Below, piece by piece: positions 5,994-27,184 of a DNA stretch of 64,000 bases. The position numbers were made by a program, and so were the translations under genes. How positions within the stretch are numbered: position 1 is the stretch's first letter; every line of letters begins with the position of its first letter. Origin of the DNA: Escherichia coli (lineage in GTDB: Bacteria; Pseudomonadota; Gammaproteobacteria; Enterobacterales; Enterobacteriaceae); assembly GCF_003019035.1 (NCBI RefSeq), contig NZ_CP027447.1; one strand, given 5' to 3'. Under the pieces are notes generated by a model that worked only from the letters and a program-made list of their open reading frames with translations, did not search any database and was not told where the DNA came from.

Positions 5994-8072
5994 ATGTCAT
6001 ATACACCGATGAGTGATCTCGGACAACAAGGGTTGTTCGACATCACTCGGACACTATTGCAGCAGCCCGATCTGGCCTCGCTGTGTGAGGCTCTTTCGCA
6101 ACTGGTAAAGCGTTCTGCGCTCGCCGACAACGCGGCTATTGTGTTGTGGCAAGCGCAGACTCAACGTGCGTCTTATTACGCGTCGCGTGAAAAAGACACC
6201 CCCATTAAATATGAAGACGAAACTGTTCTGGCACACGGTCCGGTACGCAGCATTTTGTCGCGCCCTGATACGCTGCATTGCAGTTACGAAGAATTTTGTG
6301 AAACCTGGCCGCAGCTGGCCGCAGGTGGACTATACCCCAAATTTGGTCACTATTGCCTGATGCCACTGGCGGCGGAAGGGCATATTTTTGGTGGCTGTGA
6401 ATTTATTCGTTATGACGATCGCCCCTGGAGCGAAAAAGAGTTCAATCGTCTGCAAACATTTACGCAGATCGTTTCGGTCGTCACCGAACAAATCCAGAGC
6501 CGCGTCGTTAACAATGTCGACTATGAGTTGTTATGCCGGGAGCGCGATAACTTCCGCATCCTGGTTGCCATTACCAACGCGGTGCTTTCCCGCCTGGATA
6601 TGGACGAACTGGTCAGCGAAGTCGCCAAAGAAATCCATTACTACTTCGACATTGACGATATCAGCATCGTCTTACGCAGCCACCGTAAAAACAAACTCAA
6701 CATCTACTCCACTCACTATCTTGATAAACAGCATCCCGCCCACGAACAGAGCGAAGTCGATGAAGCCGGAACCCTCACCGAACGCGTCTTCAAAAGTAAA
6801 GAGATGCTGTTGATTAATCTCCACGAGCGGGACGATTTAGCCCCCTATGAACGCATGTTGTTCGACACCTGGGGCAACCAGATTCAAACCTTGTGCCTGT
6901 TACCGCTGATGTCTGGCGACACCATGCTGGGCGTGCTGAAACTGGCGCAATGCGAAGAGAAAGTATTTACCACTACCAATCTGAGCTTACTGCGCCAGAT
7001 TGCCGAACGTGTGGCAATCGCTGTCGATAACGCCCTCGCCTATCAGGAAATTCATCGTCTGAAAGAACGGCTGGTTGATGAAAACCTCGCCCTGACCGAG
7101 CAGCTCAACAATGTTGATAGTGAATTTGGCGAGATTATTGGCCGCAGCGAAGCCATGTACAGCGTACTTAAACAAGTTGAAATGGTGGCGCAAAGTGACA
7201 GTACCGTTCTGATCCTCGGTGAAACTGGTACAGGTAAAGAGCTGATTGCCCGCGCGATCCATAATCTCAGTGGGCGTAATAATCGCCGCATGGTCAAAAT
7301 GAACTGCGCGGCGATGCCTGCCGGATTGCTGGAGAGCGATCTATTTGGTCATGAGCGTGGGGCTTTTACCGGTGCCAGCGCTCAGCGCATTGGTCGTTTT
7401 GAACTGGCGGATAAAAGCTCACTATTCCTCGATGAAGTGGGCGATATGCCGCTGGAGTTACAGCCGAAGTTGCTGCGTGTATTACAGGAACAGGAGTTTG
7501 AACGTCTTGGCAGCAACAAAATCATTCAGACGGACGTACGTTTAATTGCCGCGACTAACCGCGATCTGAAAAAAATGGTCGCAGACCGAGAGTTCCGTAG
7601 CGATCTCTATTACCGCCTGAACGTATTCCCGATCCACCTGCCGCCACTACGCGAGCGTCCGGAAGATATTCCGCTGCTGGCGAAAGCCTTTACCTTCAAA
7701 ATTGCCCGTCGTCTGGGGCGCAATATCGACAGCATTCCTGCCGAGACGCTGCGCATCCTGAGCAACATGGAATGGCCGGGCAACGTGCGTGAGCTGGAAA
7801 ACGTCATCGAGCGCGCGGTATTGCTGACACGTGGCAACGTGCTGCAGCTGTCATTGCCTGATATTGCTTTACCAGAACCTGAAACGCCGCCTGCCGCAAC
7901 GGTTGTCGCTCAGGAGGGCGAAGATGAATATCAGTTGATTGTTCGCGTGCTGAAAGAAACTAACGGCGTGGTTGCCGGACCTAAAGGCGCTGCGCAACGT
8001 CTGGGGCTGAAACGCACGACCCTGCTGTCACGGATGAAGCGACTGGGAATTGATAAATCGGCATTGATTTAA
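5994..8072 (+). CDS. fhlA: Formate hydrogenlyase transcriptional activator FhlA (sigma-54 enhancer-binding protein, 692 aa)
   Basis: GAF domains plus AAA+ sigma-54 activator motifs (GETGTGKE, GAFTGA) and C-terminal HTH; start at MSYTPMSD. Confidence 0.95.
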   Translation: MSYTPMSDLGQQGLFDITRTLLQQPDLASLCEALSQLVKRSALADNAAIVLWQAQTQRASYYASREKDTPIKYEDETVLAHGPVRSILSRPDTLHCSYEEFCETWPQLAAGGLYPKFGHYCLMPLAAEGHIFGGCEFIRYDDRPWSEKEFNRLQTFTQIVSVVTEQIQSRVVNNVDYELLCRERDNFRILVAITNAVLSRLDMDELVSEVAKEIHYYFDIDDISIVLRSHRKNKLNIYSTHYLDKQHPAHEQSEVDEAGTLTERVFKSKEMLLINLHERDDLAPYERMLFDTWGNQIQTLCLLPLMSGDTMLGVLKLAQCEEKVFTTTNLSLLRQIAERVAIAVDNALAYQEIHRLKERLVDENLALTEQLNNVDSEFGEIIGRSEAMYSVLKQVEMVAQSDSTVLILGETGTGKELIARAIHNLSGRNNRRMVKMNCAAMPAGLLESDLFGHERGAFTGASAQRIGRFELADKSSLFLDEVGDMPLELQPKLLRVLQEQEFERLGSNKIIQTDVRLIAATNRDLKKMVADREFRSDLYYRLNVFPIHLPPLRERPEDIPLLAKAFTFKIARRLGRNIDSIPAETLRILSNMEWPGNVRELENVIERAVLLTRGNVLQLSLPDIALPEPETPPAATVVAQEGEDEYQLIVRVLKETNGVVAGPKGAAQRLGLKRTTLLSRMKRLGIDKSALI

Positions 8073-8116
8073 CAGATGTGGTTATACTCGATCAACATTC
8101 AATGAAAGGAGGCAGT

Positions 8117-8545
8117 ATGGCAGTTTCAGCAAGAAATCAATTAACCGGAACAGTTAGCGCAGTAGCAATGGGCGCTGTGAATGACGAAGTAGAACTGACG
8201 CTGGCAGGTGGTGCAAAGCTGGTGGCAATTGTGACTCACAGCAGCCAGCAAGCGCTGGGTCTGGCGAAAGGGAAAGAAGCGATTGCCCTGATTAAAGCCC
8301 CGTGGGTAACGCTGGCAACGGAAGACTGTGGACTGAAATTCTCTGCTCGCAACCAGTTTGCTGGCAGCGTGTCGACAATCACCGAAGGCGCAGTGAACGC
8401 CACTGTCCATATCAAAACGGATGCGGGTTTTGAAATTGTGGCAGTGGTAACAAATGAAAGTCAGGATGAAATGAAACTCACCACTGGCTCGCGCGTTATT
8501 GCATTGATCAAAGCATCAGCCATCCTGATTGCCACCAAAGCGTAA
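8117..8545 (+). CDS. Tandem Mop/TOBE-domain molybdate-binding protein (molbindin-like, 142 aa)
   Basis: Two repeated ~70-aa units each beginning SARNQ(L/F)xG(T/S)V; strong GGAGG RBS 5 nt upstream of ATG 8117; E. coli-like codon usage. Confidence 0.8.
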   Translation: MAVSARNQLTGTVSAVAMGAVNDEVELTLAGGAKLVAIVTHSSQQALGLAKGKEAIALIKAPWVTLATEDCGLKFSARNQFAGSVSTITEGAVNATVHIKTDAGFEIVAVVTNESQDEMKLTTGSRVIALIKASAILIATKA

Positions 8546-8556
8546 GCGCCTTATTT

Positions 8557-8579
8557 GCCGGAGAGTATGGCTCTCCGGC
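8557..8579 (+). terminator. Hairpin (9-bp stem GCCGGAGAG/CTCTCCGGC) after the Mop gene, followed by T-rich tract
   Basis: Perfect inverted repeat with 5-nt loop read directly. Confidence 0.4.
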
Positions 8580-8583
8580 AGAT

Positions 8584-8928
8584 TTATTTCTTTGGACGAT
8601 ATTTTTCTGGCAACTCCGGCACCGGACGCTTGTCATCGATGAGATGACGCACGGTTAAGATCGGATGACGCCACAGCATTCTCGGCCCGGCCCAACGCAT
8701 AATCTGTTTCATCTCTTCACGCTTTGCAGGCTGGTAACAGTGCACCGGACACTGCTTACAGGCTGGTTTCTCTTCGCCGAACACACATTTATCCAGCCGC
8801 TTTTGCGCGTAGGCAAACAGCGCGTCGTAATGCTCCGGCTCCGCTGACGCCTGCGGGCATTTCGCTTGATAAAGATCGATCATTTTTTTAATCGTCAGTT
8901 TTTCACGAGAGATACGCTTGCCGGACAT
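8584..8928 (-). CDS. ygbA: Small Cys-rich protein YgbA (114 aa)
   Basis: 114-aa ORF divergent from mutS, conserved Cys residues; matches remembered YgbA position. Confidence 0.8.
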   Translation of the reverse strand: MSGKRISREKLTIKKMIDLYQAKCPQASAEPEHYDALFAYAQKRLDKCVFGEEKPACKQCPVHCYQPAKREEMKQIMRWAGPRMLWRHPILTVRHLIDDKRPVPELPEKYRPKK

Positions 8929-9214
8929 GCTGCCTCCATACTCTTAAGGTGTATTTATATTACAACTTAATTTGAAAGGGGACTATGGCTCTGAAGGAGG
9001 AGGTTTATTCAACCGACGCAATTTTGCGTACTTGCTTCATAAGCATCACGCAAAAGCTGCAAAACAGCATCTTTCCCGGAATCACCATCAAGAACTCGCC
9101 GTTCGCTTCTTCCCCTGAAATGATTAACTCCGGTATCATGTGCGCCTTATGTGATTACAACGAAAATAAAAACCATCACACCCCATTTAATATCAGGGAA
9201 CCGGACATAACCCC

Positions 9215-20725: not shown

Positions 20726-21133
20726 ATGGCGTTACGAAATAAAGCGTTCCATCAGTTACGACAGCTTTTTCAGCAGCATACGGCCCGCTGGCAGCACGAG
20801 TTACCTGACCTGACCAAACCACAGTACGCGGTGATGCGCGCCATTGCTGATAAGCCTGGTATCGAACAGGTGGCACTGATAGAAGCAGCAGTCAGCACCA
20901 AAGCAACGCTGGCAGAAATGTTGGCAAGAATGGAAAATCGTGGCTTAGTCAGACGTGAACATGACGCCGCTGATAAGCGGCGACGCTTTGTCTGGCTGAC
21001 TGCCGAAGGAGAAAAGGTACTTGCTGCGGCGATACCGATTGGCGACAGTGTGGATGAGGAATTTTTGGGGCGTTTGAGTGGAGAAGAGCAGGAGCTGTTT
21101 ATGCAGCTGGTGCGCAAGATGATGAGCAAATAG
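20726..21133 (+). CDS. MarR/SlyA-family transcriptional regulator (135 aa)
   Basis: Winged-helix MarR-like sequence, divergent from decarboxylase genes. Confidence 0.8.
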   Translation: MALRNKAFHQLRQLFQQHTARWQHELPDLTKPQYAVMRAIADKPGIEQVALIEAAVSTKATLAEMLARMENRGLVRREHDAADKRRRFVWLTAEGEKVLAAAIPIGDSVDEEFLGRLSGEEQELFMQLVRKMMSK

Positions 21134-21207
21134 GATGTTGATTGCCGGATGGGACGCTGACGTGTCTTATCCAGGCGACAAAACACACCGACTCCCAAAT
21201 AAAAGAA

Positions 21208-21240
21208 AAAGGCCAGCCTCGCTTGAGACTGGCCTTTCTG
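21208..21240 (-). terminator. rpoS rho-independent terminator (AAAGGCCAG...CTGGCCTTT hairpin followed by T-run on minus strand)
   Basis: Inverted repeat with adjacent A-run on plus strand just downstream of rpoS stop. Confidence 0.55.
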
Positions 21241-21252
21241 ACAGATGCTTAC

Positions 21253-22245
21253 TTATTCGCGGAACAGCGCTTCGATATTCAGCCCCTGCGTTTGCAGGAT
21301 TTCGCGCAAACGGCGCAGGCCTTCAACCTGAATCTGGCGAACACGTTCACGGGTGAGGCCAATTTCACGACCTACATCTTCCAGTGTTGCCGCTTCGTAC
21401 CCCAGCAAACCGAATCGACGTGCCAGTACTTCACGCTGTTTGGCGTTCAGCTCGAACAGCCATTTGACGATGCTCTGCTTCATATCGTCATCTTGCGTGG
21501 TATCTTCCGGACCGTTCTCTTTTTCATCGGCCAGGATGTCCAGCAACGCTTTTTCGGAATCACCACCCAGCGGGGTGTCTACCGAGGTAATGCGCTCGTT
21601 AAGACGAAGCATACGGCTGACGTCATCAACTGGCTTATCCAGTTGCTCTGCGATCTCTTCCGCACTTGGTTCATGGTCCAGTTTATGGGACAACTCGCGT
21701 GCGGTTCGCAGGTAAACGTTCAGCTCCTTTACGATGTGAATCGGCAAACGAATAGTACGGGTTTGGTTCATAATCGCCCGTTCGATCGTCTGGCGAATCC
21801 ACCAGGTTGCGTATGTTGAGAAGCGGAAACCACGTTCCGGGTCAAACTTCTCTACCGCGCGGATCAGCCCCAGGTTGCCCTCTTCGATAAGATCCAGCAA
21901 AGCCAGACCACGATTGCCATAACGGCGGGCAATTTTTACCACCAGGCGCAAGTTACTCTCGATCATCCGGCGGCGAGAGGCAACATCTCCACGCAGTGCG
22001 CGACGCGCAAAATAAACTTCTTCTTCGGCCGTTAACAGTGGTGAATAACCAATCTCACCAAGGTAAAGCTGAGTCGCGTCCAGCACACGCTGTGTGGCTC
22101 CCTGCGATAACAGTTCCTCTTCGGCCAAATCGTTATCACTGGGTTCCTCTTCTACTAAGGCCTTTTCGTCAAAAACCTCAACTCCGTTCTCATCAAATTC
22201 CGCATCTTCATTTAAATCATGAACTTTCAGCGTATTCTGACTCAT
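21253..22245 (-). CDS. rpoS: RNA polymerase sigma factor RpoS (sigma-38, 330 aa)
   Basis: Sigma-70 family regions 2-4; start [14 protein letters not shown]; codon 33 is GAG (Glu), no amber. Confidence 0.97.
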
Positions 22246-22307
22246 AAGGTGGCTCCTACCCGTGATCCCTTGACGGAACATTCAAGCAAAAGCCTGGTTC
22301 CGCCGAT

Positions 22308-23447
22308 TTATCGCTGCGGCAAATAACGCAGCGGGTTTACGGATTTCCCCTTGTAACGAATTTCAAAATGCAAGCGTGTTGAACTGGTTCCGGTGCTACC
22401 CATGGTTGCTATTTTTTGCCCCGCCTTCACTTCTTGTTGTTCCCGGACCAGCATTGTGTCGTTATGGGCGTAGGCACTCAGGTAATCATCATTATGTTTG
22501 ATGATAATCAGATTACCGTAGCCGCGCAGCGCGTTACCGGCATAAACAACGCGGCCATCTGCAGTCGCGATAATTGCCTGTCCTTTGCTGCCTGCGATAT
22601 CAATCCCCTTGTTGCCCCCCTCAGAAGCGCCAAAGGTTTCGATCACTTTGCCCTCAGTCGGCCAGCGCCAGGTGGAGATAGGCGTACTGGTTGATGTACT
22701 GCTGACAGTCGGCTCGGTTGTGCTTGCTGTTGGTACCGTTACAGGCGCTGTGACCGTGGTCGCAGTTGGCTTGTTGTTCGGCAACATTTTGTTAGCACTC
22801 TGTTCACCCGAAGACTCAGAATACGTAATTGTCGGTTGCGACGCAACAGCAACGGTGGAATTTTGTGCAGGCTTGATCACAACTCCTTGCTCTGCTGCGT
22901 CGGCCTGGGTAATGGCATTTCCGCCAGTGATTGGCGTACCGGAAGCATTCCCCACCTGTAAGGTCTGACCGACGTTCAGCGCGTATGGTGCCTGAATATT
23001 GTTGCGCTGAGCAAGGTCACGGAAATCGTTGCCAGTAATCCAGGCGATATAGAAAAGTGTGTCGCCTTTTTTCACTGTATAGGTACTGCCGCTATAACTG
23101 CCTTTCGGAATGTTCCCATACTGACGGTTATAGACGATGCGTCCGTTTTCCATCTGTACCGGCTGCTGAGCTACTGGCTGCACCGGCTGGATTTGCGGTT
23201 GTTGAGTGGCCTGAATTTGTGGCTGCTGTACCGGCTGAATTTGCGGTTGCTGCGCTGTAGACGTCGTCCCCATTTTCGGCGGCGGCGTAATCAACATACC
23301 AGAATTGGTATTTGCAGGCGCATTGCCATTAACGGAGCTGACCGGGGCCGGTGGATTTGAAGTGTCAGAACAGCCTGCCAGCCATAGCGAAACCAGTGAC
23401 AAAGCCGCAATGCGGCGAACGGTGAATTTTGGGCTTCCCGCGCTCAT
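22308..23447 (-). CDS. nlpD: Murein hydrolase activator lipoprotein NlpD (LysM + LytM/M23 domains, 379 aa)
   Basis: Lipobox LAGC, LysM, C-terminal M23-like domain. Confidence 0.95.
23154..23252 (-). repeat. In-frame imperfect tandem repeat inside nlpD encoding QQPQIQ(P/A)(V/T) units
   Basis: Three ~24-27-bp repeats visible in DNA and protein. Confidence 0.6.
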
Positions 23448-23586
23448 TTATCCCCCAGGAAAAATTGGTTAATAACCAGTGACATAATTACCGTGCAAGG
23501 CACCATACTGAACACTGGAAAAGATGTTCACGATACGCTGACCTGCGGCAAAATAACCAGGAAAAATCCAGGTATTTCCTCACGTT

Positions 23587-24948
<1,362 letters not shown>

Positions 24949-24968
<20 letters not shown>

Positions 24969-25998
24969 AATCACCTGTTGTGTTGATAAGTTCCCTGACA
25001 ACGCTGGTTGCAAAACTACCCGCCGGAAGCCAGAAACGGATTTCTACGGTGACGTCATCCCACCAGTTCCAGCTTAATTGTTGCGGATACAGCAGCATCG
25101 CTCTGCGCGCGGCTTCAACTTTTTCGCGCACCAGTAAGGCTTGTAATTCAGTTTCTGCGGCGACAGCTGCTTGTTCGAATGCCAGCGCTTCACGCTGAGT
25201 TCCCCATTCGCCACTGCCCGGCAATGCGGCGGTTATCATTAGCTCTTTATCGTTGACGCGACACTGTAATTCCGCCAGTTCTTCGGTGGTTGCGACAAAC
25301 CAGCTACCACGTCCGGCTAATTGTAGCGCATCGCCGTCAACAACTTGATTAACGTCTGCTTTTTTGAGGCGCTCAGCAACAATCTGATTAAACAACGCAC
25401 TGCGGGCTGCCGACAACCAAAAACTCCGTTTATTGCGATCGCGCACCGGAGTATTGGTTTGCGCCCAGCGCAGCGCGCCCTGCAAGTTGCTACCGCCAAT
25501 CCCAAAACGTTGGGCACCGAAGTAGTTCGGTACACCTTTTACGCAAATATCGATCAGACGTTGTTCAACGTCATCGCGATTGCTCACTTCGCGTAGTACC
25601 AGGGTAAAGGCGTTACCTTTCAGCGCCCCTAAACGCAGCTTGCGCTTGTGCCGCGCATACTCCAGCACCTGGCAGCCTTCCAGTTGAAAGGCGCTCAGAT
25701 CGGGCATCTCTTTGCCCGGCACGCGAGCGCATAACCACTGTTCCGTAACAGCATGTTTGTCTTTTTGCCCAGCGAAGCTGACTTCACGGGAATGAATTTT
25801 CAGGAATTTCGCCAGTGCATCCGCCACAAAACGGGTATTGCAGCCGTTTTTGAGGATTCTAACCAGAATATGCTCACCTTCACCATCAGGCTCAAAGCCC
25901 AAATCTTCCACCACCACAAAGTCTTCCGGATTGGCTTTCAGCAGCCCGGTGCCTTGCGGTTTACCGTGGAGGTAAGTGAGATTATCAAACTCAATCAT
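24949..25998 (-). CDS. truD: tRNA pseudouridine-13 synthase TruD (349 aa)
   Basis: 349 aa, conserved context. Confidence 0.93.
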
Positions 25999-26474
25999 TT
26001 TGTTGCCTTAATGAGTAGCGCCACCGCTTCACAGGCAATCCCTTCCCCACGTCCGGTAAATCCAAGTTTTTCCGTAGTAGTGGCTTTCACGTTAACATCA
26101 TCCATATGGCAGCCGAGATCTTCGGCAATAAACACGCGCATTTGTGGAATGTGCGGCAACATCTTCGGTGCCTGAGCGATGATAGTGACATCGACGTTGC
26201 CAAGGGTATAACCCTTCGCCTGAATACGACGCCAGGCTTCGCGTAGCAGCTCGCGGCTGTCGGCACCTTTAAATGCCGGATCGGTATCCGGGAACAGCTT
26301 GCCGATATCTCCCAGCGCCGCCGCGCCAAGCAATGCATCGGTCAACGCATGGAGCGCCACATCGCCATCAGAATGCGCCAGCAATCCTTTTTCGTAAGGA
26401 ATGCGTACGCCACCAATGATAATTGGGCCTTCACCGCCAAAGGCGTGTACGTCAAAACCGTGTCCAATTCGCAT
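25995..26474 (-). CDS. ispF: 2-C-methyl-D-erythritol 2,4-cyclodiphosphate synthase IspF (159 aa)
   Basis: [12 protein letters not shown]... His/Asp zinc motif. Confidence 0.96.
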
Positions 26475-27184
26475 TATGTATTCTCCTGATGGATGGTTCG
26501 GGTGAGGTAAAACTCGGCCAGTGCCAAATCTTCCGGGCGCGTGACTTTAATGTTATCCGCGCGGCCTTCGACCAACTGCGGATGAAATCCGCAATATTCC
26601 AGCGCCGAGGCTTCGTCGGTAATGGTAGCGCCTTCATTTAGAGCGCGCGTCAGGCAGTCATGTAACAGCTCACGAGGGAAAAATTGCGGCGTCAGCGCGT
26701 GCCATAAGCCGTTGCGATCAACGGTATGAGCAATGGCATTTTTGCCCGGTTCGGCACGTTTCATCGTATCGCGCACTGGTGCGGCGAGGATCCCCCCCGT
26801 GCGGCTGGTTTCGCTCAACGCCAACAGGCGCGCGAGGTCATCCTGATGCAGACAAGGACGAGCGGCGTCATGCACCAATACCCACTGCGCGTCGCCAGCG
26901 GCTTTCAGACCTGCCAGCACGGAATCGGCACGCTCTTCACCACCATCAACAACCGTGATTTGTGGATGATTCGCCAGAGGAAGTTGTGCAAAACGGCTAT
27001 CGCCAGGACTTATGGCAATGACGACATGTTTCACCCGGGGATGCGCCAGCAGCGCATGCACCGAGTGTTCAAGAATGGTTTGATTACCGATTGAGAGATA
27101 TTGCTTAGGACATTCCGTTTGCATTCGACGGCCAAATCCGGCCGCCGGAACCACGGCGCAAACATCCAAATGAGTGGTTGCCAT
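26474..27184 (-). CDS. ispD: 2-C-methyl-D-erythritol 4-phosphate cytidylyltransferase IspD (236 aa)
   Basis: PAAGFGRRM motif, 236 aa, overlaps ispF. Confidence 0.96.

Follow-up and report, generated by a model that had tools for sequence, protein, structure and literature searches.

The window analysed here is a stretch of 64,000 nucleotides of Escherichia coli contig NZ_CP027447.1. A small gene, here called mop, lies in it between fhlA, which in K-12 is the final gene of the hypABCDE-fhlA unit, and the convergent gene ygbA. The features of this part of the window are the following.

5994..8072, plus strand: fhlA, formate hydrogenlyase transcriptional activator, 692-aa product (RefSeq annotation of strain SCU-301, 100% identical over the 1.3 kb compared; open reading frame list)
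8073..8116, plus strand: fhlA-mop spacer of 44 nt, with a -10-like TATACT at 8082-8087 and no terminator inside
8108..8112, plus strand: Shine-Dalgarno sequence GGAGG, 4 nt 5' of the ATG, kept in at least 80% of orthologous loci (intergenic alignment)
8117..8545, plus strand: coding sequence of a putative di-Mop (ModG-like) molbindin of 142 aa, TAA stop included; RefSeq protein WP_000301062.1
8126..8314, plus strand: Mop/TOBE domain 1 (Pfam), residues 4-66, with predicted ligand residues S4, R6, A20-V21-N22, T40, K60 and A61
8342..8527, plus strand: Mop/TOBE domain 2 (Pfam), residues 76-137, with predicted ligand residues S76, R78, A92-V93-N94, T112, K132 and A133
8553..8593, plus strand: intrinsic-terminator-like hairpin and T-rich tail, GCCGGAGAG-tatgg-CTCTCCGGC, between the convergent mop and ygbA
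8584..8928, minus strand: ygbA, nitrous oxide-stimulated promoter family protein, 114 aa here versus 117 aa in K-12

A single convincing open reading frame, 8117-8545 on the plus strand, was found in the interval bounded by the stop of fhlA (8072) and the 3' terminus of ygbA (8584). The original prediction, made from the letters of the window, had placed here a 142-aa frame of two TOBE/Mop repeats with a GGAGG ribosome-binding site. The translation, two Pfam TOBE matches and a match to TIGR00638 in two stretches agree with this, and the ribosome-binding site is present at 8108-8112. The frame does lie directly after fhlA, at a distance of 44 nt, but the span first given to the feature, 8073-8583, is the whole fhlA-ygbA interval. 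The protein begins with MAVSARNQLTGTV and its second repeat with KFSARNQFAGSV. A longer, GTG-initiated version (from 8078) appears in the mechanical list of reading frames; the ATG is the start used by RefSeq and by all orthologs.

The hairpin at 8553-8583 consists of 14 pairs followed by TTATTTCTTT. It folds with -25.2 kcal/mol (z = -3.7), and none of 200 shuffled sequences folded as well. It had been described as a terminator-like structure belonging to mop itself; the hairpin exists, but it is not the gene's own, being the counterpart, at the same aligned position, of the one directly 3' of fhlA in the K-12-type junction.

Two annotation matters were noted in the vicinity. Genomes with mop and K-12-type genomes both have a 44-aa "hypothetical protein" annotated in the ygbA-mutS gap (window 8933-9214, minus strand). 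RefSeq records write the symbol of the formate hydrogenlyase activator as "flhA", which belongs to a flagellar gene, in place of "fhlA", and text searches could be misled by this.

Protein family and ligand residues

Pfam TOBE (PF03459) was matched twice in the mop protein, by residues 4-66 (E 1.6e-17) and by residues 76-137 (E 6.2e-16), and the NCBIfam model TIGR00638 "Mop" scored 142 bits in two stretches (cut-off 55). A Pfam scan of the protein revealed no DNA-binding or helix-turn-helix domain. The best match among solved structures was ModG of Azotobacter vinelandii (1H9J/1H9K/1H9M), whose residues 4-143 align ungapped with residues 1-140 at about 57% identity (E 5e-33). The next structural matches were the di-Mop domain of E. 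coli ModE (E ~1e-15) and then the single-domain proteins Tub, MopII and Sporomusa ovata Mop; the scores against ModG and ModE were 117 and 61 bits, respectively. Based on its sequence, the mop product is a two-domain ModG-type molbindin of the Mop/TOBE family. Its proposed identity as a stand-alone di-Mop protein is thus upheld, since it carries two Mop domains, no other domain, and is collinear with ModG. A chance reading frame or a pseudogene was ruled out by the strong domain E-values together with dN/dS ratios of 0.03-0.11.

The oxyanion sites of this family have been described for Tub, in which a buried type-2 site is formed by Ser4, Arg6, Lys60 and Ala61 of one chain and Ser40 of its neighbour, and a type-1 site on the threefold axis by the backbone of Ala20-Val21-Asn22; these sites were described as resembling those of ModG, Mop and ModE (PMC11980592). 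Ungapped alignments to Tub (9BEB) and ModG place the type-2 residues of the mop protein at S4, R6, T40, K60 and A61 in the first repeat and at S76, R78, T112, K132 and A133 in the second, and the type-1 loops at G19-A20-V21-N22 and G91-A92-V93-N94. The position-40 equivalent is Ser in Tub and Thr in ModG as well as here. In an alignment of 17 orthologs from a dozen genera the ligand residues are invariant or nearly so. A loss of the oxyanion-binding residues of Mop domains would have counted against the molbindin identity; judged by these alignments, and with the roles of the residues taken from PMC11980592, all of them are intact in both repeats.

One Escherichia albertii variant protein lacks 17 residues through an in-frame deletion, among them the IKAPW segment with the ligands Lys60/Ala61 of domain 1, and is probably the product of a defective allele. 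The gene of the E. albertii type strain is intact and 99% identical.

Some sources label the gene "modE" or "molybdate transport system regulatory protein". Assignment to the ModE family was ruled out: the ModE equivalog model NF007957 scored 88 bits against a cut-off of 369, and only its profile positions 124-261 of 263 were covered. Judged on sequence, these labels are mis-annotations, because the protein has no DNA-binding domain, fails the ModE cut-off, and keeps the GAVN loops and SARNQ in both halves.

The labels correspond to a different reading of the gene, in which a free di-Mop protein reports molybdate status as a regulator, through mixed oligomers with ModE or by acting on FhlA, and so tunes hyc, fdhF or mod. 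In its favour are the alignment of the full-length protein with the molybdate-sensing C-terminal half of ModE (E 1e-15; NF007957 positions 124-261), the regulatory labels themselves (PMC7232297), and the adjacency of mop to a transcription factor gene in 36 species. Besides the missing DNA-binding domain and the low equivalog score, three features of the protein stand against it: the GAVN loop of the ModG/Mop/Tub threefold site is kept in both halves, whereas the ModE dimer is without it; the second domain of ModE lacks the Ser/Arg of SARNQ; and the protein is much nearer to ModG than to ModE. K-12, moreover, controls hyc and fdhF without mop. A regulatory role is considered quite improbable, and a store or buffer is preferred.

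Presence, absence and ancestry of mop

The 511-bp fhlA-ygbA interval was compared by megablast with 5426 complete E. coli genomes. The gene was present in 1892 of these, always as a single chromosomal copy (1889 matches were full length), and is labelled there by RefSeq as "TOBE domain-containing protein". A 1301-bp query that included the flanks matched 5419 genomes, contiguously in only 1888; in the others it matched in two pieces lying about 466 bp closer together. A 111-nt probe for the K-12-type junction, counted when full length at 97% identity or more, was found in 3505 genomes of the 5426, including O157:H7 Xuzhou21. The two alleles jointly account for 5397/5426 genomes, and the locus is therefore a clean two-allele polymorphism with a single deletion-type junction.

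The absence of the gene from K-12, suspected in the original prediction, was confirmed. Two genomes, a K-12-type O16:H48 and an unrelated blood isolate, have 9 nt after the fhlA stop, then a hairpin (GCCGGACAG-atctgc-CTGTCCGGC) and ygbA. The gene occurs in B2 and F strains and in the window strain; K-12, O157 and most A/B1 strains lack it.

The alleles differ not just in the length of ygbA (114 aa here, 117 aa in K-12): an 8-9 nt indel lies between the hairpin and the 3' end of ygbA (window 8584-8600); the diverged segment therefore reaches slightly past the mop deletion. In E. coli FDAARGOS_1285 an IS1A element interrupts mop after about codon 46 (positions 1545-2383 of the retrieved locus, L004). 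Beyond this IS1A lies nlpD; the place lacks ygbA, mutS and the entire mutS-rpoS region.

A scan with one genome per species gave 80 loci, which were searched by tblastn with HypE, FhlA, YgbA and MutS. In 42 Enterobacteriaceae loci the product was at least 79% identical to the window protein; in the 38 remaining loci identity was 75% or lower. The gene immediately upstream of mop, on the same strand and at a gap of 31-101 nt, is fhlA in 36/42 Enterobacteriaceae species representatives, among them E. albertii, E. fergusonii, an Escherichia sp. isolate, eight Citrobacter, and members of Pseudocitrobacter, Klebsiella, Raoultella, Kluyvera, Pluralibacter, Enterobacter, Yokenella, Lelliottia and Kosakonia. 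Exact-protein look-ups placed the orthologs of E. fergusonii and Raoultella directly 3' of hypBCDE-fhlA. Three of the other loci (Phytobacter and a Kosakonia) have hypE upstream of mop with an apparent short remnant of the fhlA 3' end, and the last three have other arrangements.

In the former three (L044, L049 and L084) hypE and mop are separated by about 130 nt, and the end of this spacer resembles the last ~12 codons of fhlA (…MGMDKQAMT*). From this likeness, fhlA appears to have been deleted there and mop kept.

Neither hyp nor fhlA was found near mop in any of the 38 loci at 75% identity or lower (Serratia, Hafnia, Edwardsiella, Cedecea, Mangrovibacter, Rouxiella, Caballeronia and others). 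In Serratia, Hafnia, Mangrovibacter, Edwardsiella, Caballeronia, Rouxiella and Buttiauxella the gene lies among those of unrelated transporters, regulators and enzymes, and none of the neighbours is a mod, moa or molybdoenzyme gene. Since orthologs outside the Enterobacteriaceae stand in unrelated neighbourhoods, the link to fhlA is not general to the whole family.

The GC content of mop (50.8%) is close to that of the window (51.5%), and no mobility genes or flanking repeats are visible at its borders in the window sequence. Nei-Gojobori dN/dS ratios of mop against 11 species range from 0.026 to 0.113, a sign of strong purifying selection. The K-12-type hairpin is similar to that found 3' of mop in Citrobacter amalonaticus, as it should be if the ancestor of the K-12 allele contained mop. 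The 36/42 synteny, the normal GC content, the lack of mobility genes or repeats and this hairpin likeness point to the order hyp-fhlA-mop-ygbA as ancestral to the Enterobacteriaceae, with mop lost in the K-12-type lineage, which makes up about 65% of sequenced E. coli. They also point to one deletion as the loss event; it would have removed about 470 bp, with its ends close to the stop codons of fhlA and mop.

The gene had at first been described as wedged between fhlA and ygbA, that is, as an insertion, and this description does not hold against the cross-species synteny of a gene that is ancestral and deleted in K-12-type strains. A recent horizontal insertion, with the K-12 state ancestral, would nevertheless fit some observations: the fhlA-mutS interval is a known hotspot of island gain (PMC7232297), the Salmonella copies lie in an unrelated island beside an IS21 remnant, and the E. 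coli protein is nearer to that of Citrobacter (95% aa identity) than to that of E. fergusonii (90%). Against it, adjacency to fhlA is common to most of the Enterobacteriaceae species representatives, the divergence from other genera scales as for vertical descent, the GC content is normal, the borders are free of repeats and mobility genes, and the K-12-type hairpin is like the one 3' of mop in C. amalonaticus. Insertion is held to be very improbable, and loss in the K-12-type lineage is the preferred explanation.

The two Salmonella enterica copies retrieved (89% identical; L007 and L008) are not beside fhlA. They lie in another region, beside a pair of genes for a YedY-like molybdenum oxidoreductase and a cytochrome b and a CaiF/GrlA-type regulator gene; the IS21 remnant is at one of them (L008). 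This arrangement suggests that Salmonella lost the gene at the fhlA site and that some serovars carry it on an island.

Transcription context and proposed role

A promoter and terminator scan of the fhlA-mop spacer found no consensus promoter, and no plus-strand terminator between 7600 and 8552. The gene has the features of a member of the hypABCDE-fhlA unit, namely the same strand, a gap of 44 nt, no terminator before it and a terminator-like hairpin after it. Because mop lies between fhlA and the counterpart of the K-12 hairpin, with no terminator before its ATG, it is most likely the last cistron of this unit, as far as the sequence allows it to be read.

A motif TGG(Y)TATACT / GGCTATAA (window 8078-8087) closely follows the fhlA stop and lies some 30 nt 5' of the mop ATG. 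Alignment of 37 intergenic regions revealed that it is kept in Escherichia, Citrobacter, Pseudocitrobacter, Kluyvera and Pluralibacter-like genomes despite saturated synonymous sites, and that it is absent from Klebsiella, Raoultella and Kosakonia. Its TATACT may be the -10 element of a separate mop promoter, but no usable -35 is present: the two TTGAT-like candidates stand 13 and 27 nt from it, both unfavourable distances. By eye, no convincing ModE-type palindrome or ModE/FNR-type operator was found in the 44-nt spacer.

In K-12 the hyp-fhlA unit is transcribed from an FhlA/sigma-54 promoter upstream of hypA and from one inside hypA that depends on FNR. As the last gene of a unit read from these promoters, mop would be made under anaerobic, formate-inducing conditions.

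By analogy with ModG (57% identity) and with Mop/Tub, and from the conserved GAVN loops, three di-Mop chains would assemble into a 32-symmetric particle like the ModG trimer or the Mop/Tub hexamer. Such a particle could hold up to eight MoO4(2-) or WO4(2-) ions, six of them buried at the domain interfaces (type 2) and two on the threefold axis (type 1). The type-2 sites would be formed by the Ser/Arg of SARNQ, the Thr of VT-x-S and the Lys-Ala of IKA, and the type-1 sites by backbone atoms of the GAVN loops. The protein would then hold or buffer molybdate during assembly of the molybdoenzyme formate dehydrogenase H and the other parts of formate hydrogenlyase.

The physiological ligand could instead be tungstate, with WO4(2-) either sequestered to protect molybdoenzyme synthesis in the gut or stored, as by Eubacterium limosum Tub. 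The ligand residues correspond to those of Tub, a protein that takes up either oxyanion in vitro and serves as a W store in vivo, and the TudG/ModG architecture is reported to occur in more gut-microbiome species predicted to use W than predicted to use Mo (PMC11980592). Against this, a preference for Mo or W is not readable from sequence alone (PMC11980592), and the conserved neighbours of mop are the machinery of a Mo-dependent pathway. A further point against tungstate is that E. coli and its relatives are not known to have tungstoenzymes. Taken together, a tungstate protein seems unlikely, and molybdate is preferred as the ligand.

The best joint explanation, to which we give a probability of roughly three in four, is that mop encodes a cytoplasmic ModG-type molbindin co-expressed with hyp-fhlA that acts as a molybdate buffer, and that it is an ancestral gene lost in the K-12 lineage. 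A molybdate store or buffer tied to formate hydrogenlyase is plausible, and the tie is strengthened by the conserved linkage to fhlA. K-12 has a fully functional formate hydrogenlyase without the mop gene; any role in this system must therefore be dispensable, as K-12 and about 65% of E. coli lack the gene. A literature search found no experimental papers on this protein or on any enterobacterial ortholog.

A bolder form of this explanation is offered tentatively, and we would sooner doubt it than adopt it. In it, hyp-fhlA-mop would be an ancestral, dedicated molybdate reservoir coupled to the formate regulon, in which Mo for FdhH is banked when formate hydrogenlyase is induced, and the 35%/65% split among E. 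coli genomes would be physiologically real. If so, the anaerobic fitness of strains of the two types should differ where molybdate is scarce or tungstate is present, as might be the case in the inflamed gut or the urinary tract.

Earlier records and comparison with known systems

The gene and its size polymorphism are already known, from the annotation of 1892 RefSeq genomes and from two papers (PMC4209514, PMC7232297). In CFT073 it was recorded as c3292, a "putative molybdenum-pterin-binding protein", where it lengthens the fhlA-mutS amplicon from 1208 bp to 1673 bp (Ewers et al. 2014, PMC4209514), and the long amplicon was tied to B2 "pattern III" strains (PMC4209514). Lerminiaux et al. reported that K-12 has ygbA alone between fhlA and mutS (PMC7232297). 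In the window, the region from ygbN to rpoS (~21000-26500) carries the gene set that Ewers et al. call "pattern IV", made up of a slyA-like MarR regulator gene and the genes for hydroxyarylic acid decarboxylase BCD (equivalent in SCU-301: L091, 22282-25103). A complete type I-E CRISPR-Cas locus lies beyond them. As the window has these "pattern IV" genes near rpoS, mop is not confined to B2 "pattern III" strains.

The protein family (ModG, Mop, Tub, ModE) is likewise structurally characterised already. The importance of the present analysis is modest, since the family is well understood and the gene an ordinary one, with no new kind of biology. It gives the event a direction, loss in K-12, shows how widely mop is linked to fhlA, checks the ligand sites residue by residue and corrects the modE label. 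Molybdate acquisition affects the gut and urinary-tract fitness of enterics, and a lineage-specific cytoplasmic Mo store would for this reason be a testable candidate for physiological differences between ExPEC-type and K-12-type strains.

Among known genes, c3292 of E. coli CFT073 (WP_000301062.1) is the same gene at the same locus, with no structural difference. The C-terminal di-Mop part of E. coli ModE (PDB 1B9M, 1O7L, 1H9R) shares the tandem-Mop fold over residues 3-140 (E ~1e-15), and the first-domain motifs SARNQ, T-x-x-S and KAPW are common to both. Unlike the mop protein, ModE carries a winged-helix DNA-binding domain at its N terminus and functions as a dimer without a threefold site. 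It also has no GAVN loops, and no Ser/Arg ligands in its second Mop domain, both of which the mop protein keeps.

The single-domain Mop/Tub proteins (Clostridium pasteurianum MopII 1GUG, S. ovata Mop 1FR3, Haemophilus influenzae Mop, E. limosum Tub 9BEB), of about 70 aa, align end to end with each half of the mop protein (E 1e-9 to 1e-5) and have the same type-1 and type-2 ligand residues. They differ in being one-domain chains that form hexamers, whereas the mop protein is two fused domains, of which three chains would by analogy give the same particle.

The closest counterpart is ModG of A. vinelandii (PDB 1H9J, 1H9K, 1H9M), which also consists of two tandem Mop/TOBE domains only (145 aa versus 142 aa for the mop protein) and has the SARN, GAVN, VT and KA(P/S) motifs in both halves. 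The two genes differ in their surroundings. The modG gene sits with mod transport and regulation genes and is tied to the supply of Mo to nitrogenase (PMC11980592), whereas mop follows hyp-fhlA in non-diazotrophic enterics. In the window no mod genes were found near mop, in place of the A. vinelandii-style association, and its neighbours are hypBCDE-fhlA and ygbA. The conserved feature of mop is thus its linkage to fhlA, not to mod genes.
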